Part shown: one piece after another, positions 1,377 to 54,713 of the stretch
Position numbering within the stretch: position 1 is the stretch's first letter
Layout: each line of letters opens with the position of its first letter
Source of the DNA: Patescibacteria group bacterium
GTDB taxonomy: Bacteria > Patescibacteriota > Microgenomatia > UBA12405
Assembly: GCA_050943115.1 (NCBI GenBank)
Contig: JBMNON010000001.1
Span: forward strand, 50,023-114,022
Direction: 5' to 3'
DNA length: 64,000 nucleotides
Program-made: the position numbers and the translations under genes
The notes under the pieces: generated by a model
What the model was told of the DNA's origin: nothing
Database searches by the model: none
The model's input: the letters and a program-made list of their open reading frames with translations, nothing else

Positions 1377-1772
1377 ATGTCAAAACCCAACTACCCTCTT
1401 GCAGTCCTTGTTTTTATCCTTACTCTTGTAATCTTCACCATCCTCGGCCTTGCACTTTCCCGAAACAATCAAAATCTTCCACCGACAAACCAGCTCCCGA
1501 CGGACAACAGTCCCACACCAACTGCTATTGAAGCTAATTTTAATGAATCCGGTAACTTAATCAAAGAAAATGATTCCTGGAATTTCCTTTATGAAGAACC
1601 CGGTCAACCGGCTTTAAAAGTTTCTCTTAACTTTACCGGCGAAAGCCGCTGCGACATCTCCGGTTCTGTTGTTGAATGTGACGATGTAAACATAGAAACC
1701 GGTGCTCGGGCTATGGTAAAAGGCGACAAAATCGGCAATATAGTCACAGTTTACAACCTAATAAGCTTTTAA
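1377..1772 (+). CDS. hypothetical membrane-anchored/secreted protein
   Basis: ORF with N-terminal TM helix; Pro/Thr-rich segment then Cys-containing domain. Confidence 0.35.
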   Translation: MSKPNYPLAVLVFILTLVIFTILGLALSRNNQNLPPTNQLPTDNSPTPTAIEANFNESGNLIKENDSWNFLYEEPGQPALKVSLNFTGESRCDISGSVVECDDVNIETGARAMVKGDKIGNIVTVYNLISF

Positions 1773-2635
1773 GAAATATCTTCGGTATCTGACTCGTTAT
1801 TAGATATATGCTTCATCACTATCATATATCTGGACCATGTATAGTCACCAACTTCATCATTACCCTCCTCCCCCGGAACTCTCCATCCACAAAAAACTAC
1901 TACCAGATACTTCTCCTTTATCCTCTGCTCTGCTTGGGCATAATTCATTAGCGCTTTGGCATCACTCATAAATTCCCCTACTCCTTCAGGTGGAATTCTT
2001 ACCAAGTTCACCACTGAAAAATTTTCCCTATTTTCCTTTTGGACAAACTCTATTTCAGCCCTCATGATTAAATCAGCTCTTCTTTTTCTTTCATCTTCAT
2101 TAAATATATTTCCAAATAGCGACACTCCGCCCTCCAGAAAACTCCTCAAAGGCTCAGCCTCCAAAGGTATAGAATTTTTACTGCCACTATGCATTGCAAC
2201 CAGTGTGTAATCCTCTGTGTCCAAAGTAAATGCCCTACCGTCACCAGCTTTATATAATTCACCGACATCCGAAATTCCTTCAACATAAGGACTGGGAATA
2301 AATCCTATTTCAATACAACTCCCATCTTCCACCCTCACTATTCCTTGAACTTTTTCTTTGAATGACAAATTTATTTCACCAAAAACATATGGTTGTGACA
2401 TTTCTAATCCCGCAGATGGGACTATCACCGCACGCGGCTCATCATCAATGGGCTTTTTGCCAACCTCAATTGTAGGTACAGCTTTGGTATCATTGATAAT
2501 TCTCGAAATAGCTTCAGTACTTTCAGGCCCTGGGTTTTTATAGTTGTCTCCAGCACCACATGCAGACGCAGCCACACCTAGCACACTTAAAGCACTTATT
2601 TTTAAAAAATCTCTTCTGCCAAGTAATCTTTCCAT
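1769..2635 (-). CDS. Tat-signal lipoprotein, hypothetical
   Basis: MERLLGRRDFLKISALSVLGVAASACG carries a twin-arginine motif RRDFLK plus a lipobox-like ASAC. Confidence 0.45.
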   Translation of the reverse strand: MERLLGRRDFLKISALSVLGVAASACGAGDNYKNPGPESTEAISRIINDTKAVPTIEVGKKPIDDEPRAVIVPSAGLEMSQPYVFGEINLSFKEKVQGIVRVEDGSCIEIGFIPSPYVEGISDVGELYKAGDGRAFTLDTEDYTLVAMHSGSKNSIPLEAEPLRSFLEGGVSLFGNIFNEDERKRRADLIMRAEIEFVQKENRENFSVVNLVRIPPEGVGEFMSDAKALMNYAQAEQRIKEKYLVVVFCGWRVPGEEGNDEVGDYTWSRYMIVMKHISNNESDTEDIS

Positions 2636-2797
2636 AATTCATTTTTAAAATTAATTTAAAAATGAATTATGGAAATAACTTCAAACCACCCTTCAGGGAA
2701 CATAACACACAAACCTGTGCATCGCTGTTCCCCGAAGGAGGTGTTGGAGGGAATTTGGCACATCAATGTGCTTCCTTCCCTCCTCCCGAGAGATCCA

Positions 2798-3481
2798 CTA
2801 TGTTTCGTGCCGCCGCCCGGAACCATAGCCATACAAGTACCCGAAGAATGCTCCCAAGGCCATTGCTAGGAGAATAATAATTGCCATTTGGCAATCATTA
2901 TCCACACCACCCCCTGTAGGAATCAGTGGGATTGGTGTTGCCGTTAAAGTCGGCTGTTCCGGCGTCTCTGTCGGAGTGACTGGCGTAGCTGTCGGTGTCA
3001 CTGGAGTCGAAGTCGGCGTCATCGGCGTTGACGTTGGTGTCGGCTCCTCCGGCGTGCTCGTAGGAACTGGCGTTTCCGTCGGCTTCACGGGCGTTTCGGT
3101 AGGCACCGGAGTCTCAGTTGGCACCTCTGGTGTACTGGTCGGAGTCATTGTAGGGATCGGGCACTTGCATGTCCACGAAACGACAATGTGCGATATGTCT
3201 TGGCAGGCACTCGAATTGTCTTTCTCCCACACTCTCCAACCGGAATCATCCCAGGAAAACCCGAAACACTCGTTCGGACTACCTTGGTATTGTCCGGCCT
3301 TGATCTGAACGAAAGCTGACTCCACCCCATGTTCACAGTCAAACGATCCAGATTTCTCCGAATCGCTATCATTCCACTCGATCTTAACGGATCCGCCTCC
3401 ACAGGTTTCTGCTACAACCCACAAAGGGGTTGAAGCCAGAACCGTAACCAAAACGATCAACAAAAAGACTCTCCACTTCAT
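2798..3481 (-). CDS. GC-rich cassette: secreted Cys-domain protein with TP-repeat linker and C-terminal sortase-like sorting signal
   Basis: Start chosen at MKWRVFLL (ATG at 3481-3479) preceded by AAGGGAGGTCTGAA SD. Signal peptide, long TPTSTPEVPTETPVPTETPV... repeats, then LIPTGGG + hydrophobic helix + RRHET tail. Local GC is clearly above the window mean. Confidence 0.55.
   Translation of the reverse strand: MKWRVFLLIVLVTVLASTPLWVVAETCGGGSVKIEWNDSDSEKSGSFDCEHGVESAFVQIKAGQYQGSPNECFGFSWDDSGWRVWEKDNSSACQDISHIVVSWTCKCPIPTMTPTSTPEVPTETPVPTETPVKPTETPVPTSTPEEPTPTSTPMTPTSTPVTPTATPVTPTETPEQPTLTATPIPLIPTGGGVDNDCQMAIIILLAMALGAFFGYLYGYGSGRRHET
2925..3165. repeat. tandem low-complexity repeats encoding Thr-Pro-(Glu/Val/Ser) linker
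   Basis: Reiterated ggcgt/ggtgt/cggag units on the + strand; the opposite strand encodes PT(E/S/V)TP repeats. Confidence 0.5.
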
Positions 3482-3887
3482 TTCAGACCTCCCTTTCCTG
3501 TTCGTGTGAAGTATATTATCGGCCATCATTCTCACCACTATGGCAAGAATGTTTAACAAGGTTAGTTGCCAAGGGGCGGCAACTCTACAACAGATGGGGG
3601 TTAAAAGGGGTAATATATCCAAAAGGGACACTACCGGCAAATTTTACCGGCACTATCCCTCCTGGATATTTGATCTCTCGGATTGTTAAAGAACTATAAT
3701 CCACCCTCATTGATTAGCAATTAACCAAAAGTGGGAACTATAATACGACATTATAGGTTTTAATAGCTTAAAAGTCAATCACTTGATAGCCACTTTCCAC
3801 CATTCCTTGAAGCAAAATTCCAAAAATGTTATTCTTAAGAATAGATATCCTTGTTTGTGCCTTGATAATTACAAATTTTGATTTTAC

Positions 3888-4418: not shown

Positions 4419-5464
4419 TGGTCCAAACTGAATCGCTTATTTCCGCCCTGGAAAATATCTACATCTCCCCTTTAGAGCAATGTAACTTGAACTGCAAGTA
4501 CTGCTACACTCACAAAACAAAAAATGTCCTTTCTAATAAACAAATATTAAACTTCGTCCGTGTTTATGGATCATTTTTAAAAAGTTACAGCCGCAAATTT
4601 TTGACAATCTCTCAACTCGGCAACGGACTTGACGGAGGCCAAAAATTTTGTGGCAAGACTGAAAATTCCCCTCGCTACAATAAATACATATCAAATTCTT
4701 TCAACACAAGTGCTTTTGACAGTCTTCAACGCCAAAACATTGACCAGCCCCAAAAACACCTCACCCAAAAGAATACATTATCCCTAAAATCCATCCTTTT
4801 TTGCGGCGGAGAAGTATTTCTTCTCCCTGACTTCCCTCCTCTGGTCAACCAACTTATCTCTCAAGGCATTTTTATTACCATCATCACCAACGGCACTATC
4901 GACCGGCTCTCCGAAATTAAAGACCCAACCAATTGTCAGCTATTAGTCTCCCTCGACGGACCCGAAAAAATCCACGATCAAAACCGAGGTTTGGGTAATT
5001 TTCAAAAGAGTAAAATTTTTATTCGTAATGCACTTAAATTAGGCTTTCCAGTGGAAATTATGTATCTCATAAGTTCCGCCTCTTACCCTTACAGAGACTC
5101 GTTTAACCTCTTTGATTTGCCCAAAACTTATCTTACAGACCGCCTTCATTCACTCGCTCCGGACCAAACCCTGAATATCAAAAAAAACTATCCTACCTAC
5201 CCCGCCAAAAACTTCGGTTGCTTTCAGCTGGCTTTGCAATCCGATACTTATATCTACGGTTGTTGCGAATCCTCAAAGTCCCTCGCCCGAATGTCTGATC
5301 CGCCCTCACGGATAATCGACAACTTCATCAATGCCCTCAAACCCTGCTCCCTCTGCTCCAATAAACAATGTCTGGGTTGCGTTGACCCCAGATACCTTTG
5401 TAGTTACAATTCCGAACTTTCCCAACAAAATTGCCAAAATGTTGTAAAATCTTTTACCCAATGA
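4418..5464 (+). CDS. radical SAM protein with SPASM/twitch-like C-terminal Cys cluster
   Basis: CNLNCKYCY (CxxxCxxC) at residue ~22, GGE motif FCGGEVFLL, C-terminal YGCC...CSLCSNKQCLGC. ATG at 4418 overlaps the rpmG stop (TAATG). Confidence 0.7.
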   Translation: MVQTESLISALENIYISPLEQCNLNCKYCYTHKTKNVLSNKQILNFVRVYGSFLKSYSRKFLTISQLGNGLDGGQKFCGKTENSPRYNKYISNSFNTSAFDSLQRQNIDQPQKHLTQKNTLSLKSILFCGGEVFLLPDFPPLVNQLISQGIFITIITNGTIDRLSEIKDPTNCQLLVSLDGPEKIHDQNRGLGNFQKSKIFIRNALKLGFPVEIMYLISSASYPYRDSFNLFDLPKTYLTDRLHSLAPDQTLNIKKNYPTYPAKNFGCFQLALQSDTYIYGCCESSKSLARMSDPPSRIIDNFINALKPCSLCSNKQCLGCVDPRYLCSYNSELSQQNCQNVVKSFTQ

Positions 5465-6483
5465 ATCAAAAATTTCAATCCCAATTTATCAAGGAATGGA
5501 CAATCCAGCTTGCAAGGGATTTTTTCCTGTCCCGGCACTTTCACGAGGTTGAAACTCCTACTCTCATGCCCCGGATTCCCATCGAACCCAATCTCTACCC
5601 GCTCAAAACCACTTGGGTCGAAAGAAAGCTTGATTTCTACCTGGCTACCTCGCCTGAAAGTTCTCTAAAAAAGTTAATCGCGGATGGTCTTGGCAACTGT
5701 TTTGCCATCAGCAAAGTCTTTCGTGATTTAGAAAATATAGGACCTACTCACAATCTGGAATTTTCCATGCTCGAATGGTATGAAATGGGCAAAACCTATC
5801 ATGATATCGCTCTAACTACTCAAAAATTACTAATACATGTTTACAATGGAATCCAAAATATATTAGGAATCTGCAATAACAATATACTCAACTACCAGGA
5901 TAACATAATTGATCTTAGCCCACCTTGGCACGAATATATCATGACTGATCTTTTTAAAAAATATGCGGATATGGATTTAAGCCAAAATTTAACCACCCAA
6001 AAGCTTAAAACCACCGCCCAAAAAAAAGGTTACAACACCGAAGGTGTTGACTCCTGGGAACCACTCTACACTCAAATATTTATTAACGAAATCGAATCCC
6101 GTCTTCCCATGGACAAACCCGTTATTATCTATGATTTTCCAACTCGCCAATCCCCCCTTTGCCAACCCTGTCCCAATTCCACCACCTTCTCTCAACGTTT
6201 TGAGTTTTATATCGGGGGCATGGAAATTGGCAATGCCTACACTGAATTGACAGACGCCAAGACCTTGGAAAAAAACTTTAAAAAAGAGGCTGCCTACCGC
6301 AAAAACCACTCCCTCCCCCTCCACCCTCCCGATGAAAAATTTGTTGAGGCCATTGGCCGTTTACCCCCCTGCGCCGGTATCGGACTGGGCGTCGACCGTC
6401 TAGCCATGCTTCTTGCCAATACATCCAATATCGAGGATGTTCTCTACTTCCCCACCTCCAAACTTATTTCTGACTCTAATTAG
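5461..6483 (+). CDS. epmA: EF-P--(R)-beta-lysine ligase EpmA/GenX-like (class II LysRS catalytic core, no anticodon domain)
   Basis: FHEVETPTL, ATSPESSLKKLIADGLGNCF, HNLEFSMLEWY (motif 2), RFEFYIGGMEIGNAYTELTD, LPLHPPDEKFVEAIGRLPPCAGIGLGVDRLAML (motif 3) align closely with E. coli EpmA. ATG at 5461 overlaps the rSAM stop (ATGA). Confidence 0.75.
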   Translation: MNQKFQSQFIKEWTIQLARDFFLSRHFHEVETPTLMPRIPIEPNLYPLKTTWVERKLDFYLATSPESSLKKLIADGLGNCFAISKVFRDLENIGPTHNLEFSMLEWYEMGKTYHDIALTTQKLLIHVYNGIQNILGICNNNILNYQDNIIDLSPPWHEYIMTDLFKKYADMDLSQNLTTQKLKTTAQKKGYNTEGVDSWEPLYTQIFINEIESRLPMDKPVIIYDFPTRQSPLCQPCPNSTTFSQRFEFYIGGMEIGNAYTELTDAKTLEKNFKKEAAYRKNHSLPLHPPDEKFVEAIGRLPPCAGIGLGVDRLAMLLANTSNIEDVLYFPTSKLISDSN

Positions 6484-7300: not shown

Positions 7301-8443
7301 TTATATCTTCTTCAATATATTCAATAGCTTGCCGTTAATCTTGTCCGGAGTAAAAACCTGCTTCATCCTATCCCTTACCTTGCCGCTTACTTCCTGGCGA
7401 TTAATTTCTCCGACCTTTTTATATACTTGAGCTGTCGACCTAAAATCTACCACCCAATCTTTTAAACCTAATTTTTTGAAAGTTTCTGCCACCCCCATAT
7501 TGGAGCTAACCAGAGCCGGAGTTCCGCAGGCAACGGCCTCCTGAGCTACATTTCCGTAAGTCTCAAAAAATGAAGGGCTCAAAACTACCCCCATATTACC
7601 ATAGAATTTAGCCAACCTCTGGTTATTCATCGGTTTAATTAACTTAACAAAATTATACAAATCACCCACATCATTTTTAGCCTTCTTGGTATCAGTTACC
7701 ACGTTAATTCTAAACAAATCACCGCGTTTATGGTTATATCTAACCAACTTCTTCACAAAATTTGGATTTTTTATATTTGACCAACGGCTAACTAAACCGA
7801 CGTTTTTGGCAGAACCCCCCTTCTTAATATCAAAGAAATGTTCCGGCACCGGATTGGGCAGCACTGCCCCCTGGCAAATCTTATGGCCAAAAACTTCGTT
7901 TTCAACAGTCTCCTTAGCTAGTTCCGACGGAAAAACATAGAACAATCTATCGTTGTCAAATGTCTTCTCCATTTCATTTACCAGTTTTCTTGGTTTTTCG
8001 TCCATATGCTCTGTTTCTTTAGTCAATATTCCGTGATAATGCAAAACCATTGACTGATTATTCTTATTCGACCCGGCCATAAATAAACACCATGGTACAA
8101 AGTATGTACCATTTACCAAAATTACGTCCGGCTTTTCCTTTTTAATTACTTCTTTATAGGTATCTATCAACTCTTGATAAGAGTTTTTTATGTCTTCAAC
8201 ACTTTCGGAATCCTTCAGCACATCCGCAAACACCTTGCATTTTTTATTAACTTTAAGCAGCTCAAAATTCTTCTTATCTTCTTTGTAAATTCCACTTTCA
8301 CAAGCATTCGGCTCTCCGCAAATTTCCACCCCGACAATTTTAACCTTCTTCTTTGAATCACTTTCTACATAATTAACAAAATTGGAAAAAGTCTGTCCGA
8401 TTCCTCCTAGTGGATTAGTTTGAACATTGGTTAATATTTTCAT
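7301..8443 (-). CDS. glycosyltransferase, GT4 (GT-B fold)
   Basis: FFETYGNVAQEAVACGTPALVSSNMGVAE matches the GT4 E..G....EA.A.G.PV motif. Confidence 0.65.
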   Translation of the reverse strand: MKILTNVQTNPLGGIGQTFSNFVNYVESDSKKKVKIVGVEICGEPNACESGIYKEDKKNFELLKVNKKCKVFADVLKDSESVEDIKNSYQELIDTYKEVIKKEKPDVILVNGTYFVPWCLFMAGSNKNNQSMVLHYHGILTKETEHMDEKPRKLVNEMEKTFDNDRLFYVFPSELAKETVENEVFGHKICQGAVLPNPVPEHFFDIKKGGSAKNVGLVSRWSNIKNPNFVKKLVRYNHKRGDLFRINVVTDTKKAKNDVGDLYNFVKLIKPMNNQRLAKFYGNMGVVLSPSFFETYGNVAQEAVACGTPALVSSNMGVAETFKKLGLKDWVVDFRSTAQVYKKVGEINRQEVSGKVRDRMKQVFTPDKINGKLLNILKKI

Positions 8444-14604: not shown

Positions 14605-14629
14605 CCCCCAATCTTTCTTAACTTTTTTG

Positions 14630-14701
14630 CAGGCCCATCAGGATTCGAACCTGAAATAGCAGTTTTGGAGACTGCGGTGATAGCCATTTCACTATGGGCC
14701 T
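14630..14701 (-). tRNA. tRNA-Trp (anticodon CCA)
   Basis: Reverse complement folds as a cloverleaf: acceptor AGGCCCA/TGGGCCT, U8, D-stem GTGA/TCAC, anticodon stem GCAGT/ACTGC with loop CTCCAAA, T-arm TCAGG-TTCGAAT-CCTGA, discriminator G73. CCA is not encoded. Confidence 0.8.
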
Positions 14702-15046: not shown

Positions 15047-15056
15047 AAAAATTTTG

Positions 15057-15130
15057 TGGACCTGGGGGGACTTGAACCCCCGACCTTCCCCATGCCATGG
15101 GGACGCGCTAGCCAACTACGCTACAGGCCC
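15057..15130 (-). tRNA. tRNA-Ala (anticodon GGC)
   Basis: Reverse complement GGGCCTG...CAGGTCCA with G3:U70 Ala identity pair, anticodon stem TCCCC/GGGGA with loop ATGGCAT, T-arm GGTCGGGGGTTCAAGTCCCCC. Confidence 0.85.
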
Positions 15131-18290: not shown

Positions 18291-18848
18291 ATGAGAACGT
18301 TCTACTTTCTGCTTGCCGTCGCCTTGGTGTTTATGCCTGTTGGCTGTGGCGCCATCTATGCTGCGGTCGGGGGACGCAGTCTGATCGTCGGTCAACCGGA
18401 GGGATACATCCCACCGGCCGCTGACAGTCCCGCTGCTGATCCGACCCCAGTGCCGCCCACTGCCACCGCCCCCGTGACTCAGACTCTCCAGCGAAACGCG
18501 GAAGGCTACGTCGGTCCCACGACCGCCGAAGTCTCCGCCCTGGTTGGGGTGGATCTGGTTCGAGTGGGGACGGAGCCTTCCGCCTGGACATGGCGAGGGA
18601 AGCCTTCAACGGCAACCATCACCTGTCCGGAGGGCTTCTCATGCACGCTCGACGCCGTCGACGACATCACCGTCGTCGTCGGTGGAGTCAACCAGGAGGT
18701 TCTTGTTTACGCAGGGACCTTCAGATGGCTCGAGGCATACCCGCAAGGGATATGCGGCATCTTCGACTCGGAGCAGGAGTTTGCACTGAAAGAGGGCTAC
18801 CAAGTCCGCTATCAGGAAGCTTCTGGCTACGAGGCAGTCTGCCCATAA
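18291..18848 (+). CDS. GC-rich cassette A: secreted protein with Pro/Ala/Thr-rich linker (PPAADSPAADPTPVPPTATAPVTQT) and C-terminal globular domain
   Basis: ATG at 18291 sits 8 nt after AAAGGAGAAG. The signal peptide is MRTFYFLLAVALVFMPVGCG. The region is about 60% GC against about 40% background. Confidence 0.55.
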   Translation: MRTFYFLLAVALVFMPVGCGAIYAAVGGRSLIVGQPEGYIPPAADSPAADPTPVPPTATAPVTQTLQRNAEGYVGPTTAEVSALVGVDLVRVGTEPSAWTWRGKPSTATITCPEGFSCTLDAVDDITVVVGGVNQEVLVYAGTFRWLEAYPQGICGIFDSEQEFALKEGYQVRYQEASGYEAVCP

Positions 18849-21362: not shown

Positions 21363-22013
21363 ATGAAGTGGCAAGTTCTTTTAGGTCTTTTCGTTCTGGT
21401 CGTGATGGTCAGCTTCCCGGCTCTTGCCGAAGAGACAAAGACCATCTCCGTCTCAGGAAACACTGCCTGTTTAGCCTTCGTCGCCAACTACGACGGAGCA
21501 GCAACAGTCCATGTGTTGTGGGGCATCCCGGGCACTCCTCGTGAAGATCTTGTCTTCACCGAGCGGACTGTCCTGGTTGTCCCCCCGGAAGGCGCAAATA
21601 CCTTCTGGTTTGGAGGAAGCGAGGAGTTTGTGGTGGCAACTGATCTAACTCCGCTGGGAGAAGATTGGTATGCTATACCTCAAGTCCTGCAACCGACACC
21701 AGAACCGACTCCGCAACCGACTCCTGCACCGACATTCGATGTTTTCCTCCCCCTTGTCTTCTCGCCCCCCAGCACCATTACCATCGAACGTGATGGTAAC
21801 AATCTGGTCTTACGGGCCTCTAGGCAACCAAGTACCGACCTCTATCTCCTCTGGGGAGTGGAAAACACACCTCGACATAACCTGGTTTTCATCAATCAGG
21901 TCGCTACCACACCGATTCCCCAAGGGGCACAAACCTTCTGGTTTGCCGCACCCAACTTCAGGGTAAATACCAACTTTCAGGACCTCGGTTCTGATTGGTA
22001 CCAAATCCCCTGA
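21363..22013 (+). CDS. GC-rich cassette B: secreted two-domain protein (internal duplication) joined by PTPEPTPQPTPAPT linker
   Basis: AAAGGAGAAACTCAG-ATG RBS; signal peptide MKWQVLLGLFVLVVMVSFPALA. Two homologous ~60-aa modules (VLWGIPGTPREDLVF...FWFGGSEEF...DWYAIP and LLWGVENTPRHNLVF...FWFAAPNF...DWYQIP). Confidence 0.6.
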   Translation: MKWQVLLGLFVLVVMVSFPALAEETKTISVSGNTACLAFVANYDGAATVHVLWGIPGTPREDLVFTERTVLVVPPEGANTFWFGGSEEFVVATDLTPLGEDWYAIPQVLQPTPEPTPQPTPAPTFDVFLPLVFSPPSTITIERDGNNLVLRASRQPSTDLYLLWGVENTPRHNLVFINQVATTPIPQGAQTFWFAAPNFRVNTNFQDLGSDWYQIP

Positions 22014-22133: not shown

Positions 22134-24827
22134 ATGAAACTAGTCAAAACCATCTGGCCTCAAATTTTTCTCACCCTTATCTTAGGATTGGTCTTCTATC
22201 AAAACTATACTCCCGGCACCTACCTTACCGGCTGGGACAACCTTCACCCCGAATTCAATTTACCTGCCAATATTAAACGTTCTATCTTTTCCACCTGGCA
22301 AGAATACCAGGGTCTGGGGCTTTTAGCCGGCATGGCCCACGCCGCCGATCTCCCCCGTCAGCTTTTCCTTCTCCTCATCTCACCTCTAGTCCCCATTGAT
22401 CTATTAAGATACGTTTATCATTTTCTCCTAATTGGCCTTGGCACTTTTGGCGTTTATTATCTTGGCCTTTTTGTCACCCAAAATAAATCAAAAATTCCCT
22501 CATTTATCGGCGCCCTTTTTTATCTCCTTAATTTCGGCTCCATCCAATATCTTTCCCTGCCTTTCGAACCCTATACCACCTTCTGGGGCTTCCTGCCCTG
22601 GCTGATTTTGTCTCTTTTCTGTCTTCTTAAATCAAACACTAAAAAGAACTTTTTAATTTTCATCTTGCTCAATTTCTTGGCAGTCCCCTCTTTTTATGTC
22701 CAAACAATTTTTTTGGTTTACCTTATTTCTGTTATATTAATCCTCTTTCTCCAACATCTTCCCACCAATACTACTAACCATATCAAATTATCTCTCCTCA
22801 TCGTTTTTAGCATTCTTGTAGTTAACTCCTTCTGGCTCCTGCCCAATATTTACTTTACCCTATCCAAAGTCTCCGTCACCCAAAACGCCATGATAAATCT
22901 CATGGTCACCGACCAGTTTATCGAACAAAATTACCACCGGGGAAAAATCACCGACTTTATCCCCCTCCGCTTCCTTTACTATGACATAAAAGATAACCAG
23001 CAAAACCCTCCCATTCCCCTTTTCAATACCTGGCACCAGCATTTTTCCTCACCCCTCATTGTCGCTATCTCCTATCTATTTTTCTCCCTTGTCCTACTGG
23101 GCGCCATCTTTTCCAAAAACCGATATAAAAGATATTTCACCACTCTCCTCCTTTTTACCCTAATGGGCCTTCTTTCAGCTACTTTCCCCTTCAATCTGCT
23201 CAATACCATTCTTCGTGCCACCCCCCTGCTTAGCCAGATTTTCCGTAATTCTTTTACCAAACTTATCGTTCCCTGCCTTGTCTCCCTGTCGATACTATTG
23301 ACTTTTAGTCTGGATTTCCTGCCTAAAATTGCCCAGAAGTTCTCCATCCTTCTGCTACCCCTTCTTTTTATATTTTCTCTTCCGGCATTTAAAGGCAACT
23401 ATATCCATCCCCAAATGCGAAACAGCATCCCCGTAGAGTATTTTGAACTTTTTTCCTTCCTCAAAAACGTATCTACCCATTCCCGCATTATGAACCTGCC
23501 CCAATACAGTTTTTGGGGCTGGACAACTTACAGATGGGGGCCAACCGGTTCCGGTTTTCTCTGGTATGGCATCGACCAGCCAATTATGGACCGAGCTTTT
23601 GATGTCTGGAGTTCTGAACTGGAAAACTACTATTGGCAACTTCACTACGCTCTCCTCACGGAAAACCAAAACCAATTTAACCAAATCCTTGAAAAATATA
23701 ACATTGGCTACGTCCTTTTCGATAAAAATGTCATTCTGCCGGACGCTGGCAGCTCCAGTCGGATTGTCAGGGATACCGAAAACCTCTTATACCATTCCCA
23801 GCTTCTGGAACCGCAAGAAAGCTTTGGTCAAATTACGCTCTTTAAAGTCAAAAATCCTCCCCAAATCATCAACAATGTTACGATTCTCGACAACCCCCAA
23901 AACATTAATAATCCCGAACAGTTCCAGCACCTAGACCAAGCCTATTCCGACTTTGGTCCCTATATTACCTCAGGCTCTAATACCCAAATCCTCTATCCTT
24001 TTGGATCCCTTTTTACCAACCGCCCCGAAAAACCCGGCTTTTTACTCTCTCATTCTGATAGTTCCCAAACCATCCTGCTTTCTTCCGAATATAGCTCCCA
24101 CTCTCAAACTATTTCCCCCTCTTGGGAAAGTTGCCAGGGAACCCAAAAACTCCTCAATGCCCAAAACGAAGAAAAAACCTCTTTCTTTAGCTGTCAGTCG
24201 GATCTCGTCACTAATACCGCCTACCTCATAAAAATCACCGCGAACAACACCTCAAATCGCCCTCTTCTCTTCAAGGTCTTTTCTTTACTTGACAATCGTC
24301 TTTATGCTGACAGTCGGATTACAGAAAACGGCCGTTCTGAAACTTTAATCGTCGTCCCTCCCGGCAATAAATTTGATCAGGGTATCGGAATTAATTTTTC
24401 CAGCAATTCTTATTCAAATAAAACATCAAACAATCTTATCGAAGATGTCTCCATTTCCCCCATGCCCTATCACAGTCTTATCAGTCTCAAAACTCCCGTT
24501 ACTGAAAACCATAGCCCTGCCTTGACTTCACCCTTTAATGTTAAGCAGCCGAATCAAACCTTTTACAAAATCAACTTGGGCAGTTTACCCCACAAACCCA
24601 CCCTGGCTCTCTTCCAGTCCTACCACCCCGGCTGGTTGGCCTTCTCTCTAAACCCTCTACCCCAAATCCTAAAGCAACATTATCATCTTAGTAACTGGGC
24701 TAATGGCTGGCATCTTGAAAACAACCTAAGTAATCAAACCGTTTACGTGATATTCCTACCCCAACTCCTTCAATATATTGCTTTTTTCTTTACACCTCCC
24801 TTGCTCCTTCTAATCCTAAGAAAATAA
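22134..24827 (+). CDS. large polytopic membrane protein, putative GT-C fold glycosyltransferase (YfhO/Pmt/ArnT-like)
   Basis: 897 aa with more than 10 predicted TM helices in the N-terminal half. The first extracytoplasmic loop has acidic residues (TGWDNLHPEFN). Large C-terminal soluble region. The family assignment is tentative. Confidence 0.45.
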   Translation: MKLVKTIWPQIFLTLILGLVFYQNYTPGTYLTGWDNLHPEFNLPANIKRSIFSTWQEYQGLGLLAGMAHAADLPRQLFLLLISPLVPIDLLRYVYHFLLIGLGTFGVYYLGLFVTQNKSKIPSFIGALFYLLNFGSIQYLSLPFEPYTTFWGFLPWLILSLFCLLKSNTKKNFLIFILLNFLAVPSFYVQTIFLVYLISVILILFLQHLPTNTTNHIKLSLLIVFSILVVNSFWLLPNIYFTLSKVSVTQNAMINLMVTDQFIEQNYHRGKITDFIPLRFLYYDIKDNQQNPPIPLFNTWHQHFSSPLIVAISYLFFSLVLLGAIFSKNRYKRYFTTLLLFTLMGLLSATFPFNLLNTILRATPLLSQIFRNSFTKLIVPCLVSLSILLTFSLDFLPKIAQKFSILLLPLLFIFSLPAFKGNYIHPQMRNSIPVEYFELFSFLKNVSTHSRIMNLPQYSFWGWTTYRWGPTGSGFLWYGIDQPIMDRAFDVWSSELENYYWQLHYALLTENQNQFNQILEKYNIGYVLFDKNVILPDAGSSSRIVRDTENLLYHSQLLEPQESFGQITLFKVKNPPQIINNVTILDNPQNINNPEQFQHLDQAYSDFGPYITSGSNTQILYPFGSLFTNRPEKPGFLLSHSDSSQTILLSSEYSSHSQTISPSWESCQGTQKLLNAQNEEKTSFFSCQSDLVTNTAYLIKITANNTSNRPLLFKVFSLLDNRLYADSRITENGRSETLIVVPPGNKFDQGIGINFSSNSYSNKTSNNLIEDVSISPMPYHSLISLKTPVTENHSPALTSPFNVKQPNQTFYKINLGSLPHKPTLALFQSYHPGWLAFSLNPLPQILKQHYHLSNWANGWHLENNLSNQTVYVIFLPQLLQYIAFFFTPPLLLLILRK

Positions 24828-25114: not shown

Positions 25115-25777
25115 ATGGTCATCAGCTGGAGTAACATCATTCTGTTTCTTGCGGGGATCGGAATCATCTTCATCGCTTTTCTTGCTTTGGGCGGAGCCAT
25201 CTACTGGTGGTTCTTTAAGAAGCCCACGGAAGAGCAACCCGAAGAGGTCGAGCCTGCCCCCCGACGCCGAGAGGAACACGACGAACCCGTCGTCGAACGT
25301 ACGACTGTACGTCGTGAGACTACGGTTCGCCCCGCGCGTCCACGAGAAGCCGTCATCGAAGAAGAGGTGGAAACTCGTCCCGTCGTCCGTCGTCGTCCGG
25401 CCACCCCCCCCGTTGTCCGCCGTCGTGCTCCAGCCCCCCCCAAGGAGGTAACCTCCTTCAACGAGGCTACCGACAAACTGGTGGATTATGTCGATCGCTA
25501 CGACACGAAAGAGATCCAGCTCCAACGGGACATTCGTCCTGCCTGGTCGGCTTTTCGAAGCTCCCTCGACGCGGCCGTTTCTGTCGGTGACAATCCGAAG
25601 ATCAACGTCACGAAAGTGGCCAAAATCCTCATTGACGCCGAGCAGGACGCCGCCAAGCGAAGCATGCCGGGCTACGCTCGAGAGTTCAGGTCCTACCTGA
25701 AGCAGCTCAACGTGGAGATCACCGAAGAGTCTTCGGACAAATCGGATGTACCACCTCCTCCCGCTCTCTCCGACTGA
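25115..25777 (+). CDS. GC-rich cassette C: N-terminally anchored protein with Arg/Pro/Glu-rich linker and C-terminal domain
   Basis: AAAGGAGCAAC-ATG RBS; TM helix IILFLAGIGIIFIAFLALGGAIYWWFF. Linker PRRREEHDEPVVERTTVRRETTVRPARP...RRRPATPPVVRRRAPAPP; about 60% GC. Confidence 0.5.
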   Translation: MVISWSNIILFLAGIGIIFIAFLALGGAIYWWFFKKPTEEQPEEVEPAPRRREEHDEPVVERTTVRRETTVRPARPREAVIEEEVETRPVVRRRPATPPVVRRRAPAPPKEVTSFNEATDKLVDYVDRYDTKEIQLQRDIRPAWSAFRSSLDAAVSVGDNPKINVTKVAKILIDAEQDAAKRSMPGYAREFRSYLKQLNVEITEESSDKSDVPPPPALSD

Positions 25778-45063: not shown

Positions 45064-46077
45064 CTAATTTATTAAATTCTTTTTATAAAACAAGACGTCC
45101 CCTTCTGCCACCTCCTCCCAATTACCTGAAAGGTTGTGATCATCATTTGAGTATACATAAAGCATTACTTCTTTATCAACCGCTCTCAATCCTTCAACCA
45201 CTTCCTCCTGCCACGTTACTTCACACCAAGCATCTGCAGTTCCCTGGTGGATCACTATTGGCGCTGCTACCCAATCATAGTAATTTTCAAAAGCATATCT
45301 TCGGCTGTCGTGATGTTTTTCGAAATTATTTATAGCCTTAATTACTGCCTTCCCACCATCATCTAATCCTGACGCCGTATCCAATACACTTTTTGGAAAA
45401 GGATTTGTCATTGGCGCCCACAAGCTGGTCGGATAATTTCCACTGGTAATTTCCAAAACGGACAGGGCAATCTGCCCGCCATTACTATGGGCCCAAATTC
45501 CGATGTTATTTTCATCTACAAATCCGACCTCTTTTACCGATTCTATTAAATCCAATACTGTCGGCACTTTCTCAAAGCGTGCTTCCATCATATCCAGACT
45601 CTCCGCATCGGACTCTCCGAATCCCAAAAAATCTATGGAAAATGTTACAAAACCATTCTCTGCCAGCTTATCAGCCATTCTCCAGCTTCCCGATCCTACA
45701 TAGTAGCCAGACTTGTCCGCATATCCACGTATCATAATAATTGCTGGTTTCTTCCGGCTTTCCTCTGGATTCGGTATGTTTACCATACCTGAAATTTTTT
45801 TTCCGTCCGAATAAAAATAGAATACTCTACTGTCAATATTTTCCAGAACCTCTTTTCTCCTTATGCAAACCCCTTCCGGTTCTCCGCCAAACTCTATTTT
45901 GCTAACTTTCCCGCCCCTTTTTTTCAAGTTATCAAAATCGTACTTTTCCAAATAATTTTCTGCCTCCTGTTCCCTCTCTCCTGTCGGTTGGGTTAGTTTA
46001 AGACCCCACTTCCAATAACCAAAAGCTGTTGCTACCAAGCCCATTATCAAACCCAAAACTACAAAAAGTCGCTTCAT
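45064..46077 (-). CDS. secreted alpha/beta hydrolase (S9/DLH-like)
   Basis: N-terminal signal/TM, nucleophile elbow AHSNGG, later D and H (DDHN). Confidence 0.55.
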   Translation of the reverse strand: MKRLFVVLGLIMGLVATAFGYWKWGLKLTQPTGEREQEAENYLEKYDFDNLKKRGGKVSKIEFGGEPEGVCIRRKEVLENIDSRVFYFYSDGKKISGMVNIPNPEESRKKPAIIMIRGYADKSGYYVGSGSWRMADKLAENGFVTFSIDFLGFGESDAESLDMMEARFEKVPTVLDLIESVKEVGFVDENNIGIWAHSNGGQIALSVLEITSGNYPTSLWAPMTNPFPKSVLDTASGLDDGGKAVIKAINNFEKHHDSRRYAFENYYDWVAAPIVIHQGTADAWCEVTWQEEVVEGLRAVDKEVMLYVYSNDDHNLSGNWEEVAEGDVLFYKKNLIN

Positions 46078-46136
46078 TACAATTATTTTACCCCAAACAC
46101 CTTCTCTCTAAATACTTCCAAGTGCTATCATCACTT

Positions 46137-47633
46137 ATGTCTTCTTTGCTGAACTTCCTCAAAAAACATCGCTTGCTTATTTTCATTTTAGTATTGGGTT
46201 TATCTTTTCGTTTCTATAATTATCCTAATCGTTGGGTTTTGAACCAAGATCAAGCTCGTGATGTTTCTATCGCCCTTTATGCAATTAGAAACCGAACCCT
46301 CCCCCTTCTTGGTTCACCTTCCTCCGCAGGTCCTTTTAACTTCGGACCTCTTTATGATTGGCTCGTTATTATTACAACCCTGCTTTTCCCCTTCACTTCT
46401 GGTCCTTGGGTTGCCTTTACCCTGCTTTCAACCCTTGTTATCGTTATCTTCTATTTAATCGGACGTCAATTTGCCGATCATTCAACCGGGCTCATTTTTG
46501 CTCTTACTACCGCTTTTGCTGCTGGTCCCATTGGTAATGCTCCCGACATGCTCAACACGGTTATTGTTCTTTTTTGGGTATCTCTTGCCTTTCTTTGCTT
46601 AACTTTTCTAATCACAAAAAAGAAAATTGCCTACGCCATTCCACTATCTTTTTTTATCGGCGCTGCTCTCAACTCCCATTTTCAATCTCTCGGCTTATTT
46701 GCCCTGCTTCTGTCAGCGTTTCTCATCAACCCATTTAATTTTAAGCAAAAAATTCAAACCGGATTCCTTTTTTTATTCGGTTTTCTTCTCGCCTTCCTGC
46801 CTCTTTTAGTCTTTGATATAACTCATAAATGGATCTGGATTAAAAGTGTTTTTGCTTATTACACCAATGGTCAAAACAAATTTCATGTTCCGATCCGTTG
46901 GCTTACTGATCTTCGTGATTTTTGGCCCCAATTATGGGGCAGCACCATTCTTGATCTACCCTATGCCGGCTACTTTTTTTTGGTTCTCTTCTTTGTAGCC
47001 ATTTATCTTTATTACCACAAACACCGTCGATTACCTCTTCCTCTGATCATTCTAACCGTCTCGTTACTTATCCAAGTTGTCCTGCTTCGTTATTACAAAG
47101 GTGTTCGTTCTCGTGAATACCTCATTGTTTTTCATTCCTACTTCATTTTTTATACAGGCTGGCTCCTTTCTGTGTTTATTCACACCAATCGTCGCTTAGG
47201 CCAATTTTTAATTGGCCTTTTTTTACTAATCTCTTGTTACTCTAATTACAAAATTATACAAAAAACTTCTCAAGCTAAAATAATCCTAACTTTCAAAAAA
47301 AATATTGACAGTCTGCATTTGGGAAATTTTGAATACTATGTCAAAAATTCTCCCAATGATCAGCTTAATACTCCTCTCTTTTACTTGCTATATAAAGAAA
47401 ACCGTATTAATCCTTCGGCATACAAAATTGGCACTTGTTATCCCAAACACGATTCTGACTATTGCCCTTCACCGGAGTATATTATTCACCAGTCAACAAA
47501 ACCTCCTTATATTCTTTACAACCTGTCTCATTTATCATCCGAGGACCTAGCCAGATTAGGTTTCTACCAATATACCCCCAAAAACATATACGAACGCCTT
47601 TTTGTTAATTATCCTCAAGCATTAAATAATTGA
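46137..47633 (+). CDS. GT-C glycosyltransferase (GT39/GT83, ArnT/PMT-like)
   Basis: More than 10 TM helices. First loop FRFYNYPNRWVLNQDQARDVSIALYAI...GPFNFGPLYDWL matches the ArnT/PMT_2 N-terminal pattern. Start moved to MSSLLNF. Confidence 0.55.
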   Translation: MSSLLNFLKKHRLLIFILVLGLSFRFYNYPNRWVLNQDQARDVSIALYAIRNRTLPLLGSPSSAGPFNFGPLYDWLVIITTLLFPFTSGPWVAFTLLSTLVIVIFYLIGRQFADHSTGLIFALTTAFAAGPIGNAPDMLNTVIVLFWVSLAFLCLTFLITKKKIAYAIPLSFFIGAALNSHFQSLGLFALLLSAFLINPFNFKQKIQTGFLFLFGFLLAFLPLLVFDITHKWIWIKSVFAYYTNGQNKFHVPIRWLTDLRDFWPQLWGSTILDLPYAGYFFLVLFFVAIYLYYHKHRRLPLPLIILTVSLLIQVVLLRYYKGVRSREYLIVFHSYFIFYTGWLLSVFIHTNRRLGQFLIGLFLLISCYSNYKIIQKTSQAKIILTFKKNIDSLHLGNFEYYVKNSPNDQLNTPLFYLLYKENRINPSAYKIGTCYPKHDSDYCPSPEYIIHQSTKPPYILYNLSHLSSEDLARLGFYQYTPKNIYERLFVNYPQALNN

Positions 47634-47639
47634 TTCTTT

Positions 47640-47784
47640 TGAAAACATCGTTTATAATCAGCCTATCCTTAAACCGAAGACAGTAGGTACCCGCAACCCG
47701 GGTCGAAGCATCCTACCGAGGCAGACACAAATCAATTTTGTTGTTGACACCTCGCTTCGGCGGGGTTTTTTATTTTAAATACAT
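47640..47784 (+). promoter_or_regulatory. putative rplJ (L10) leader with attenuator-like hairpin
   Basis: Structured 145-nt leader ending CCUCGC-UUCG-GCGGGG followed by UUUUUUAUUUU, immediately upstream of rplJ. Confidence 0.45.
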
Positions 47785-51704: not shown

Positions 51705-54700
51705 TTAGTCTCCGTAATACCAGGAAACCGCTTCTTTGAGATCTTTTGACATACTGAAAATATAAGCAGGATTGTATGTCACCACTACCGCCGGACTGGT
51801 ATTGTTCGTTGAAGCATCGGTATAACTCCGGGTAAATTGAACTCCGTTTGCCAGAATTATTCCTGAAATTGTCAACCTGGAAGTGCTATCCCCACCAGCG
51901 CTAAAACTACCATTGCCCACATAGACCCCCTCCACCCTGCTGACACTCTCGTCAACAGTAATACTGCCCTTTACCACCACCATCAGGAACCTGTTGCCAA
52001 CCAAATCAATTGGCGTAGTGGTAATATTTAAGTTCCCATTGACAAAAACCATTTCCAACTCACTGTCAGCATTTACCAGGTTCATTATCTGGCTTGAAGT
52101 AGCATTTCCGTCAATCAACTCCCCTTCACCCATTCCCTGATAATACCTATTGAAGAAGAAATCATAACCATAAGAATCATCAACTATACTCGCCCCACTT
52201 CTATACCAGTTGTTTGGACTCCCGTAAGATCCGCTGGCCGGATTAAGTTGCCCTGCAATCACTAGACCGTTGTTACTGCTAGTTGTGCTTATATCCAATG
52301 CTGGTATACATGTAGATGAACTGGCACAAGTACTGGGCACTTCTCTTGTTATCGTATTTTCTCCGACAATTCCTCCCCCCTCAACTTGATACCATGGGTC
52401 TTGGTGTCTATAAGATGAAAAATCTACCATAATATTTGTATTTGCAGAATACGGATTAACCACTGATGAATTAATTATGAAATTCAAATTGCAGCCTATT
52501 ATTTCACCCACCCTTCCCAAATCATCCAGCCTGGCTTCCATTGGCTCCGACCCATCAGTAAAACCCGAAATTACCGCTTGATATTGCTTGCCCCAACGCA
52601 AATGGTTGCCGTTACTATTGGAATGGTATTGGGGATCAGTCGTGGGAACTACTGTCATTGCTTTGTCTTCGGTACCAATTCCGTCAAACAACAATGAATA
52701 ACTTGATCTTAACACGGTAGTATACAAACTCGGATCCGGACAAACACCACTAGTACCAGTCTTGTCATACATGGACCCGCTTACTTCGACATTACAATCC
52801 CAAATCTTTAAATTCCTGGTCGTGTCTGTATAAGAGCCATTATTACTCCATACCCCCATTGAATCCTGTACTCGTACTTCAATATCATATGTCCTTTCAG
52901 CCATAGTGCTTTCAAACCTGATCGGGAATATATATCTTCTGGTCGTTGAGTTAACGGTTTCTACTGTAGTTGCTGTAGACGTCAAAACTGTTCCGGGAGA
53001 ATTATTGTTAGAGGTACTGATACTTAACACTGAACCGCTGATCGATCCGTCCAAAGTTATCGTATTACTGCCATTAACCATTCTGACCACAACCCGGCTT
53101 ATAGTACTTGCCCCCTGGGCGTCGCTGGCTTCCACCACCAATCTCATCATCCTTTCGGTAGCTCCGCTGACAAACCTCTGGTCACAAACCTGATTATAAA
53201 GATTTCCGGTATGTTCTCCCGGCACGGTTACATCCGCCGGTGTCCTAATCGAAAATGTTCCGACTGTCGGCGCTGAATTCACCACACTAAACTTGCCATA
53301 ATCACTACTGCTGCAGCTCAACCAACCATCACAGTTATCCCTGGAAGCTGTTATGGCGCTGTCTGCAGATCCGATACCTGGCGGCGGCGGACAAAAAGGG
53401 TTTCCGGAACACTTAGAAGCATCCGGGCCTGGATTCGGAGGGCTACTGGGCAAATCACAATGAACAAAATATGTTCCCAAAGGTAAATTGGTAATCGTCC
53501 GGCTAAAAGTTGCAGGAACATTCGTCTGGCTATAAGTTGTAGTCCCAATTTGGTAATAATTATTACCGGTTGCATTTGTGTACATGGGGTAAGAAGATAA
53601 AGCTGTCCCGCTCACCACTCCGCCATCACTTTTTTCCAGAAACATCCTTACCGGCTCACCCAAAGAATTTCCCACACCCGATACAGTCAGGGTGACACTA
53701 CCTCCGGGATTCACGTCTGAAGAACTGACTGTCACACTACACCTCTTAGGAATATCAACTTGCTCATTAATAATGCTATAGTTCACACTCTGTGAACACT
53801 GACTTGAACAAATGCTCGGATAATCATCTCGGCAGTTTACCCACGATCTAGTCCAAGTGTAATTGCCGGGATAATAACCCCTATAAGCTGTCACATTGTC
53901 CGGTGCCCAAAAGCGGGTGGGGTCACAGTCTGTTCTGGGATTCATGGATCCGTCAGGATTCAGGCCGTGGTTAGCCAAACCACCATTGTTGGTAATACTG
54001 GGGTCCCCGTTCGGCCGGCAGTCATTGTTAATGTATTCATGTCCCTGGCAGCCCCCTAATACAAAATCTATAGTATCACCTACTCTAACCCTATTTGTTC
54101 CATCTGCCGGGTTTCTCACATTCATCCCCGTTACCTGGTATGAGTTACATGGCGCTGCGGTCCTGGGTACACTAGTTCCGGTATTATTCGACCAAATGGT
54201 GAAAGCCATGCCTCCCTGCCAATAAATCCCATTGTTATCATAACATCCACAGCTCCCGCCCGGGCAATCTTTCTCTTGAACATCCAATTGGCCCGTCCTG
54301 TCATTTGGCACCTCTACCCTTAGGTTGATTGTTTCCCCTGGCCGCAAGCAATACAAATACCTATCAGCCGAAATAGCAGGGTCATTTTCATTGGGGTTAC
54401 CATCAGAAGCCGCATCTACATTTCCATTACACTGATAACGCCAGTCATCTGGAGTCGGATTACTTAGATTATCGAAACTATGGTAACTGCATATGTTTTC
54501 AAGTGCCTCCAGAACTACAGTATAGTTCTTGTTGTTAGTAATCACCAAAGTGTCTTCATTTAATTTATTCCTCCCATAACAGCTCTGTCCTGGGCTGCAG
54601 CCCATACCACCTTCCGGATAACAAACCAAATTTTGTGCGACAACTATACTTGAAAAACCATACAACCAAGCTACACTCACTACCCCAAATATTAGCAATA

Positions 54701-54713
54701 GCTTCTTTGTCAT
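51705..54713 (-). CDS. giant (1002 aa) secreted Cys-rich surface protein, unknown function
   Basis: Signal peptide MTKKLLLIFGVVSVAWLYGFSSIVVA. Many Cys, Asn/Gly/Ser/Thr-rich, likely beta-rich repeats; no enzymatic motif recognised. Confidence 0.5.
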   Translation of the reverse strand: MTKKLLLIFGVVSVAWLYGFSSIVVAQNLVCYPEGGMGCSPGQSCYGRNKLNEDTLVITNNKNYTVVLEALENICSYHSFDNLSNPTPDDWRYQCNGNVDAASDGNPNENDPAISADRYLYCLRPGETINLRVEVPNDRTGQLDVQEKDCPGGSCGCYDNNGIYWQGGMAFTIWSNNTGTSVPRTAAPCNSYQVTGMNVRNPADGTNRVRVGDTIDFVLGGCQGHEYINNDCRPNGDPSITNNGGLANHGLNPDGSMNPRTDCDPTRFWAPDNVTAYRGYYPGNYTWTRSWVNCRDDYPSICSSQCSQSVNYSIINEQVDIPKRCSVTVSSSDVNPGGSVTLTVSGVGNSLGEPVRMFLEKSDGGVVSGTALSSYPMYTNATGNNYYQIGTTTYSQTNVPATFSRTITNLPLGTYFVHCDLPSSPPNPGPDASKCSGNPFCPPPPGIGSADSAITASRDNCDGWLSCSSSDYGKFSVVNSAPTVGTFSIRTPADVTVPGEHTGNLYNQVCDQRFVSGATERMMRLVVEASDAQGASTISRVVVRMVNGSNTITLDGSISGSVLSISTSNNNSPGTVLTSTATTVETVNSTTRRYIFPIRFESTMAERTYDIEVRVQDSMGVWSNNGSYTDTTRNLKIWDCNVEVSGSMYDKTGTSGVCPDPSLYTTVLRSSYSLLFDGIGTEDKAMTVVPTTDPQYHSNSNGNHLRWGKQYQAVISGFTDGSEPMEARLDDLGRVGEIIGCNLNFIINSSVVNPYSANTNIMVDFSSYRHQDPWYQVEGGGIVGENTITREVPSTCASSSTCIPALDISTTSSNNGLVIAGQLNPASGSYGSPNNWYRSGASIVDDSYGYDFFFNRYYQGMGEGELIDGNATSSQIMNLVNADSELEMVFVNGNLNITTTPIDLVGNRFLMVVVKGSITVDESVSRVEGVYVGNGSFSAGGDSTSRLTISGIILANGVQFTRSYTDASTNNTSPAVVVTYNPAYIFSMSKDLKEAVSWYYGD

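Follow-up and report, generated by a model that had tools for sequence, protein, structure and literature searches.

Proteins sorted through an LPXTG signal carry an N-terminal signal peptide and, at the C-terminus, the pentapeptide L-P-x-T-G with proline at position 2, a hydrophobic segment and a positively charged tail; cleavage falls between the threonine and the glycine, and the protein is joined to peptidoglycan by an amide linkage. The sortases that do this are eight-stranded beta-barrels with a catalytic His after beta4, a Cys at the end of beta7 (in the motif TLxTC) and a conserved Arg in beta8, and to our knowledge sortase systems have been catalogued almost entirely with sequence models from Firmicutes and Actinobacteria. 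Departures from the LPXTG form are known from Streptococcus pyogenes pilins, in which the class B sortases SrtC1/2 act on EVPTG, VVPTG, QVPTG and VPPTG; motifs of the (V/I)PTG type are genuine sortase signals (PMC7900414). Gram-positive type IV secretion systems (T4SSs) use sortase-anchored adhesins (PMC12857230), and a survey of T4SSs in Patescibacteria reported no detectable adhesins (PMC12102498). Here we describe a gene for a 227-residue surface protein (the target) and the gene downstream of it (the partner) in a 64,000-nucleotide stretch, hereafter the window, of the Patescibacteria group bacterium assembly GCA_050943115.1 (contig JBMNON010000001.1, positions 50,023 to 114,022). We consider it probable that the two products function in the manner of a substrate and its dedicated sortase, the latter being very divergent, because a C-terminal motif is kept on a diverging background, the partner has a predicted sortase fold with invariant His and Cys, and the pair recurs at other loci.

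The target is encoded on the minus strand at 2798-3481, with its stop codon at 2798-2800. Its ATG at 3481 lies 6 nt from a Shine-Dalgarno sequence, GGGAGG (3488-3493), which differs by one base in the closest related locus, L029 (CAZFAI010000003.1). The protein begins with a signal peptide (residues 1-24; 3410-3481) consisting of MKWR and VFLLIVLVTVLASTPLWVVA, with hydropathy up to 2.1 and a modelled helix at residues 2-16; cleavage would probably occur between VVA and ET. There follow a head domain of ~83 residues (25-107; 3161-3409) that belongs to a rare unnamed family and has six cysteines (27, 49, 72, 93, 105 and 107), a Thr/Pro-rich linker of ~80 residues (about 108-185; 2927-3160), and the motif L-I-P-T-G-G-G (186-192; 2906-2926), which L029 keeps as L(I/V)PTGG and whose core is common to the seven gene pairs described below. 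Six polar residues, VDNDCQ, separate this motif from a 22-residue hydrophobic helix (199-220; 2822-2887; hydropathy 2.2), and the protein ends in the charged tail SGRRHET (221-227; 2801-2821), with RR at 223-224. Within the C-terminal region, TATPIPLIPTGGGVD would be a candidate substrate peptide. Thr and Pro make up 61% of residues 107-193, where there are nine PTxTP units, and Tandem Repeats Finder detected a 21-nt period within the linker DNA (2961-3028). An AlphaFold model built on a 13-sequence alignment gave a confident seven-strand all-beta head (predicted local distance difference test, pLDDT, 85-95), with the linker disordered and residues 195-221 forming a C-terminal helix.

A first-pass annotation of this DNA had described the GGGAGG site, the signal peptide, a small Cys-containing domain and about 80 residues of Thr/Pro repeats, ending in LIPTGGG, a hydrophobic helix and RRHET, and we found all of these as described, in the minus-strand gene at 2798-3481. 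Its caution that the repeat region might be an assembly artefact can be set aside, since three contigs, drawn from no fewer than two assemblies (Logan SRR31061296 and ENA ERZ27293234), encode an identical 227-residue protein. A longer, TTG-initiated open reading frame (ORF) reaching 3640 was considered and found to be unsupported, as gene callers gave the 227-residue product on independent contigs and assemblies and the similarity to the ortholog starts at MKW. The exact 227-residue sequence was absent from the clustered protein collection that we searched, and a scan of GTDB genomes with the target gave no relative.

To place the gene among related genomes we used the EpmA-like neighbour (5461-6483) as query, which gave 36 loci from species-representative genomes; the best match, 73% identical, was in L029. 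There the genes for two small proteins (p137 and p131), the 288-residue partner and the target ortholog, followed by HPF, form a syntenic block. The ortholog (L029:6185-7021) is 278 residues long and only 37% identical to the target in a whole-protein tblastn search: its head is barely alignable, its linker is ~60 residues longer and its hydrophobic segment is different. It nevertheless retains PTLTATPIPLVPTGG, i.e., PTLTATPIPL(I/V)PTGG, and ends in RRRRRI. The DNA comparison gave the same picture, with 85% identity over the motif-proximal 100 nt (2901-3000) against 37-67% in the remainder of the gene. A conserved motif followed by a variable helix and a basic tail is the pattern of a sorting signal. 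The more distant Shapirobacteria loci do not have the module, though they do have HPF.

The partner gene (1769-2635, minus strand) encodes a 288-residue protein and begins 162 nt downstream of the target on the same strand; the spacer between the two (2636-2797, minus strand) is 80% identical to L029, above the flanking coding DNA. The N-terminus of the partner, MERLLGRRDFLKISALSVLGVAASAC, carries a twin-arginine-like signal (RRDFLK) and then a lipobox cysteine, Cys26, and is followed by a low-confidence linker of ~60 residues and a sortase-fold domain containing H149 and C249. Homologues are few (P0013-P0017) and family members are only 20-27% identical, and among the six members H149-S150, L158-E-A-E161, L163-R164, E168, F248-C-G-W251, Y265 and Y270 are invariant. 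In the AlphaFold model residues 1-82 are disordered and the core has pLDDT values of ~70-89. When we searched with this model by Foldseek, sortases accounted for all 50 top matches (E-values of 5.6e-5 to 1.9e-3), and the predicted fold has the eight-stranded sortase beta-barrel. H149 ends strand 143-149 and C249 ends strand 243-249, and in the model we tentatively read these strands as beta4 and beta7, the places where sortases carry their catalytic His and Cys. A scan of viral contigs with the partner family found none. As a further observation, the sortase-fold proteins of the window, L029, L045, L047 and L049 share the twin-arginine-like start RR(D/E)F(L/V/M), and in all except the L049 member a lipobox cysteine follows it; judged from these N-termini, such a lipoprotein start would be an unusual export and anchoring route for a sortase.

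The arrangement recurs. At seven loci (the window, L029, L040, L042, L044, L045 and L043) a substrate-like gene is followed on the same strand, after a gap of 24-162 nt, by a gene of the sortase-fold family. The heads of the seven substrate-like proteins are interchangeable, being of at least four unrelated-looking types, and their tails have in common the motif P-x-(T/S/A)-G-G-(G/E/S)-G, a helix and a basic end. Thus LIPTGGGV with a terminal RRHET in the window has as counterparts LVPTGGEG with RRRRRI (L029), GPISGGEG with RRKASLL (L040), GPQTGGEG with RRKASLL (L042), GPKTGGEG with RRKASLR (L044), RPKTGGGG with KKGRIRL (L045) and EPAGGSGP with KRIKQTVNIE (L043).

The head domain provided a second route to the same association. 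A word-indexed homologue search with the head found none, and a sequence-profile search of the PDB with the head family returned only spurious or linker matches; when 1.84 billion representatives were searched exhaustively with HMMER, only 12 clusters proved to have this head (E-values from 5e-21 to 3e-4). Most of these relatives have a signal peptide, the head, a Thr/Pro linker and a tail (LPESG, LADTG, KPTGPG or MPTAG) with a helix and basic residues. In P0012 (L048) the LADTG tail passes the TIGR01167/LPXTG_anchor model at 20.3 bits (curated cutoff, 15.9 bits), and the gene 8 nt downstream is a canonical Pfam Sortase (82.5 bits). The gene downstream of P0003 (L049) falls within the sortase-fold family (hhalign 97.4%, E-value 1.2e-11), and the gene downstream of P0004 (L047), with a twin-arginine-like lipoprotein start, GHS...TLVAC motifs and a weak family match (hhalign 24.7%), is a candidate member. 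P0009 (L039 8001-9038) has the head domain and a Thr/Pro linker fused to a C-terminal Pfam Sortase domain (28.2 bits), and the C-terminus of P0001 aligns with that of P0009 and with S. aureus SrtA, the His, Cys and Arg being invariant. The position after the substrate region is therefore held by a canonical, a fused or a divergent sortase-fold protein, which argues that the three are functional equivalents. The 62-kb contig of P0009 has a phage-like look, with many small same-strand ORFs and a DNA methyltransferase. On two unrelated contigs (L047 413-4749 and L049 2522-6879) a VirD4/TraG-like coupling-protein gene directly precedes the head-domain gene and its partner gene, an order that hints at a link to conjugation-type machinery.

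From these features we propose the following course of events. The 227-residue protein would be exported by Sec, and its six-Cys beta-sandwich head would be held off the cell by the ~80-residue Thr/Pro stalk while the C-terminal helix and RR tail gave transient retention in the membrane. The partner lipoprotein, a predicted sortase-fold Cys/His enzyme (H149, C249), would recognise L-I-P-T-G-G-G, cleave it, most likely after Thr189 (the T189-G190 bond), and transfer the protein to an acceptor. We infer the catalysis, the cleavage site and the acceptor alike; for the last, a peptidoglycan precursor would be most likely, with a lysine of another subunit as the alternative. Genes for peptidoglycan metabolism in the window and contig include MurB, a Mur ligase and SLT.

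A number of results weigh against reading the pair in this manner. In the tail, L-I-P-T-G, the proline occupies position 3 instead of position 2, so that the LPXTG pentapeptide is lacking, and 8 residues lie between the motif and the helix. No curated LPXTG, PEP-CTERM or GlyGly-CTERM model in Pfam or NCBIfam matched the whole protein or the tail alone, even at E-values up to 10. For the partner, no curated sortase hidden Markov model (HMM) of Pfam or NCBIfam gave a match, only sub-threshold twin-arginine translocation (TAT) signal matches appearing at E-values up to 1; the partner-family profile found no sortase among PDB sequences, only spurious or linker matches; and hhalign of the family against a three-sequence sortase alignment gave a probability of 0.07%. 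The AlphaFold model was built from six sequences only and has a mean pLDDT of 58.5. The Cys motif is FCGW and not TLxTC, the His motif is (M/I/L)HS and not GH, and the sortase Arg varies within the family: the window protein, P0013 and P0017 carry R269, where P0014-16 have Gln. In P0014-17 an Arg occurs four residues before that position. Since there is no match to sortases at the sequence level, the assignment of the partner rests on its predicted fold and its context.

Beyond the pentapeptide, the target does have the other parts of an LPXTG-type protein, namely the hydrophobic segment (199-220), the RR tail and the N-terminal signal peptide. The sortase-like tripartite C-terminal signal proposed in the first-pass annotation for a secreted protein with a Thr/Pro stalk is thus supported, although the support comes from comparative evidence and not from motif models; when we ran cell-wall-anchor models on the tail, as that annotation had advised, no curated LPXTG-type model matched. 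Searches of the target and its neighbours against PHROGs, Pfam and NCBIfam likewise returned only low-complexity linker and sub-threshold TAT-signal matches. The annotation had also made its reading depend on a sortase being present in the genome. A sortase-fold gene does lie immediately downstream of the target. We found no canonical sortase, and no rhomboid or exosortase, either in the ~41 window ORFs scanned (TLxTC scan and Pfam, with ORFs between ~13.5 and 27 kb only partly covered) or in the gene calls for the adjoining contig.

The variable Arg leaves some room for a different division of labour, in which a canonical housekeeping sortase encoded elsewhere processes the tail and the partner either plays an accessory role or is sortase-like but inactive. 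We think this unlikely, as a His and a Cys that stay invariant among such diverged proteins argue for catalysis, tight and recurrent adjacency to a single tail type is the pattern of a dedicated sortase, and the canonical sortase of the P0012 relative sits in the same downstream position, suggesting that the two kinds of enzyme are functional alternatives. The target could also be a plain tail-anchored protein, with the helix as its permanent anchor, PTGGG as no more than the end of the linker and a partner unrelated to it in function. This would account for a non-canonical motif that no sorting-signal HMM recognises and for a partner with no sequence-level similarity to sortases, yet we judge it quite improbable: no other part of the protein is as well conserved between the orthologs as the motif, and their helix sequences have drifted apart; seven loci combine this motif and this neighbour with different heads; and that neighbour has the predicted sortase fold with invariant His and Cys. 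A GlyGly-CTERM-like signal, served by an intramembrane protease of the rhombosortase type or by some other sorting system that does not use a sortase, is very improbable, for while the tails share a G-G core followed by a helix and Arg/Lys, and the L029 tail has a sub-threshold MYXO-CTERM match (15.9 bits; cutoff, 20), neither GlyGly-CTERM, PEP-CTERM nor PGF-CTERM models matched the target, its GG does not abut the helix but stands 7-8 residues away, the scans of the ~41 window ORFs and of the adjoining contig's called genes gave no rhomboid or exosortase, and the conserved partner has a predicted sortase fold.

Compared with described systems, the dedicated pair that we propose resembles the canonical LPXTG/LAXTG substrate and adjacent PF04203 sortase of P0012, with which it shares the head family, the Thr/Pro linker and the gene order; the tail motif and enzyme of the window are too diverged for the curated models to recognise. 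The likeness to the S. pyogenes FCT-2/3 pilins and their SrtC1/SrtC2 (Spy0129) lies in the (V/I)PTG-type motif. Unlike those pilins, the target has a small six-Cys sandwich on a disordered Thr/Pro stalk in place of CnaA/CnaB-type domains, and we saw in it no pilin-motif Lys or intramolecular isopeptide bond features; unlike SrtC1/SrtC2, the partner is not seen by sortase HMMs and has a twin-arginine-like lipoprotein signal in place of the N-terminal membrane helix. SrtB of S. aureus is a class B sortase that serves a single substrate encoded nearby, IsdC (motif NPQTN), and it resembles the proposed pair in this dedication, whereas motif, substrate fold and lineage differ and the partner's sequence family is unrelated at the HMM level. 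The head-domain genes directly after VirD4/TraG-like genes in L047 and L049 recall the LPXTG adhesins of Gram-positive conjugation systems, e.g., PrgB, but no T4SS genes flank the window copy, nor did we find a PrgB-like polymer-adhesin domain.

In this pair both the substrate tail and the enzyme are invisible to sortase models, and the fold, the invariant residues and the recurrent pairing point to the same chemistry. If this is correct, the pair would represent a new class of sortases that recognise a new motif, perhaps useful for protein ligation; the surface-display capacity of bacteria of the candidate phyla radiation (CPR) would have been under-counted; and these episymbionts would have a specific candidate means of displaying small adhesin-like heads on long stalks. 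Should the partner be inactive, the target would be another lineage-specific stalked surface protein. We offer as a tentative proposal, one that may well prove wrong, that the partner family is an unrecognised sortase class marked by twin-arginine-like lipoprotein export, the residues HS...LEAExLR...FCGW and the substrate motif P-x-T-G-G-(G/E)-G, and that with the substrate gene it makes up a mobile module of two genes, with exchangeable heads, in CPR and in other uncultured bacteria. Such a module could polymerise head-and-stalk subunits into a fibre via an invariant head lysine, and could supply undetected adhesins beside the orphan VirD4-like genes of Patescibacteria.

Upstream of the target, the intergenic block between it and the HPF gene (3482-3835) is the conservation peak of the 9.4-kb alignment with L029, at ~92% identity (93-97% over 3601-3800) compared with 57-77% for the flanking coding DNA. 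The minus strand from 3745 to 3470 folds into four hairpins with a minimum free energy of -94.6 kcal/mol (z = -5.4), and we read 3482-3743 (minus strand), from the two sequences compared, as a putative structured and conserved leader of ~260 nt in the mRNA of the surface protein, its transcript ends being approximate predictions. The hairpin that the first-pass annotation had pointed out in the 5' region exists (AGTTGCC-aaggggc-GGCAACT, 3564-3584), but is unremarkable alone, since the window holds 203 perfect 6-bp hairpins compared with ~100 in shuffles; it is one element of this larger leader, which also contains a hairpin of ~25 bp at 3612-3672. An integron attC site or a miniature inverted-repeat transposable element does not explain these hairpins, as the core sites are not those expected and the window has only one copy of the block. 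Rfam gave no family for the leader at gathering or relaxed thresholds, the relaxed matches being only chance hairpins such as mir-2355. Within the conserved block there is a consensus match to a sigma-70-like promoter, TTGACT-17-TATAAT (3750-3778, minus strand; 11 of 12 consensus positions), a putative promoter for transcription of the leader together with the gene. The block as a whole is possibly a new cis-regulatory leader or a small RNA.

The first-pass annotation had called the gene a GC-rich cassette. The anomaly is real, with a guanine plus cytosine (GC) content of 0.53 in the target region against ~0.42 in its surroundings, but the label is only partly apt, as much of the excess comes from amino-acid composition. 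GC at second codon positions is 0.55 in the target and 0.63 in the linker because of the ACN and CCN codons, while GC at third positions (GC3) is modestly raised, at 0.54 compared with 0.31-0.50 in neighbouring genes. The third-position plus-strand skew of the target, -0.34, falls within the range of host genes (-0.31 to -0.66), so that the apparent loss of GC skew across the target is mostly an effect of amino-acid composition, and in view of this host-like skew we rejected the idea that recent horizontal acquisition alone produced the anomaly. Over the whole window (1-64000) the plus strand is C-rich, with a GC skew of about -0.3 per kb window irrespective of gene strand, in agreement with a strand disparity published for the Microgenomates order UBA1400 (PMC7143001). 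Three other GC-rich genes (18291-18848, 21363-22013 and 25115-25777) code for small proteins, either secreted or in the membrane, that have stretches rich in Pro/Thr or in Arg/Pro/Glu; none of these proteins has a C-terminal sorting tail. With GC3 of 0.55-0.67 and third-position skews of -0.18 to -0.26, weaker than the host's, they look more foreign than the target gene.

Other genes of the window may be noted briefly. The small genes at 912-1325 (p137, a secreted protein of 137 residues) and 1377-1772 (p131, a membrane protein of 131 residues) have no family assignment; they are conserved together with the module in L029 (73% and 53% identity, respectively) and were absent from the other Shapirobacteria loci, except that p131 had a weak match in L022 (31% over 80 residues). 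A GT4 glycosyltransferase gene (7301-8443) is missing from the otherwise syntenic L029, and the radical-SAM gene of the window has an insertion of ~200 nt relative to L029 (4600-4800). A polytopic protein at 46029-47633 had a near-threshold match to PMT_2 (protein O-mannosyltransferase-like; 25.5 bits, cutoff 26.1), making it a candidate glycosylating enzyme for the Thr-rich linkers, whose O-glycosylation is itself putative. Two large ORFs, 51705-54713 (1002 residues) and 22134-24827 (an 897-residue polytopic membrane protein), had no Pfam match, and housekeeping features of the window include a ribosomal L10 leader (47656-47781; 55.8 bits), tRNA-Trp (14629-14701) and tRNA-Ala (15056-15130).

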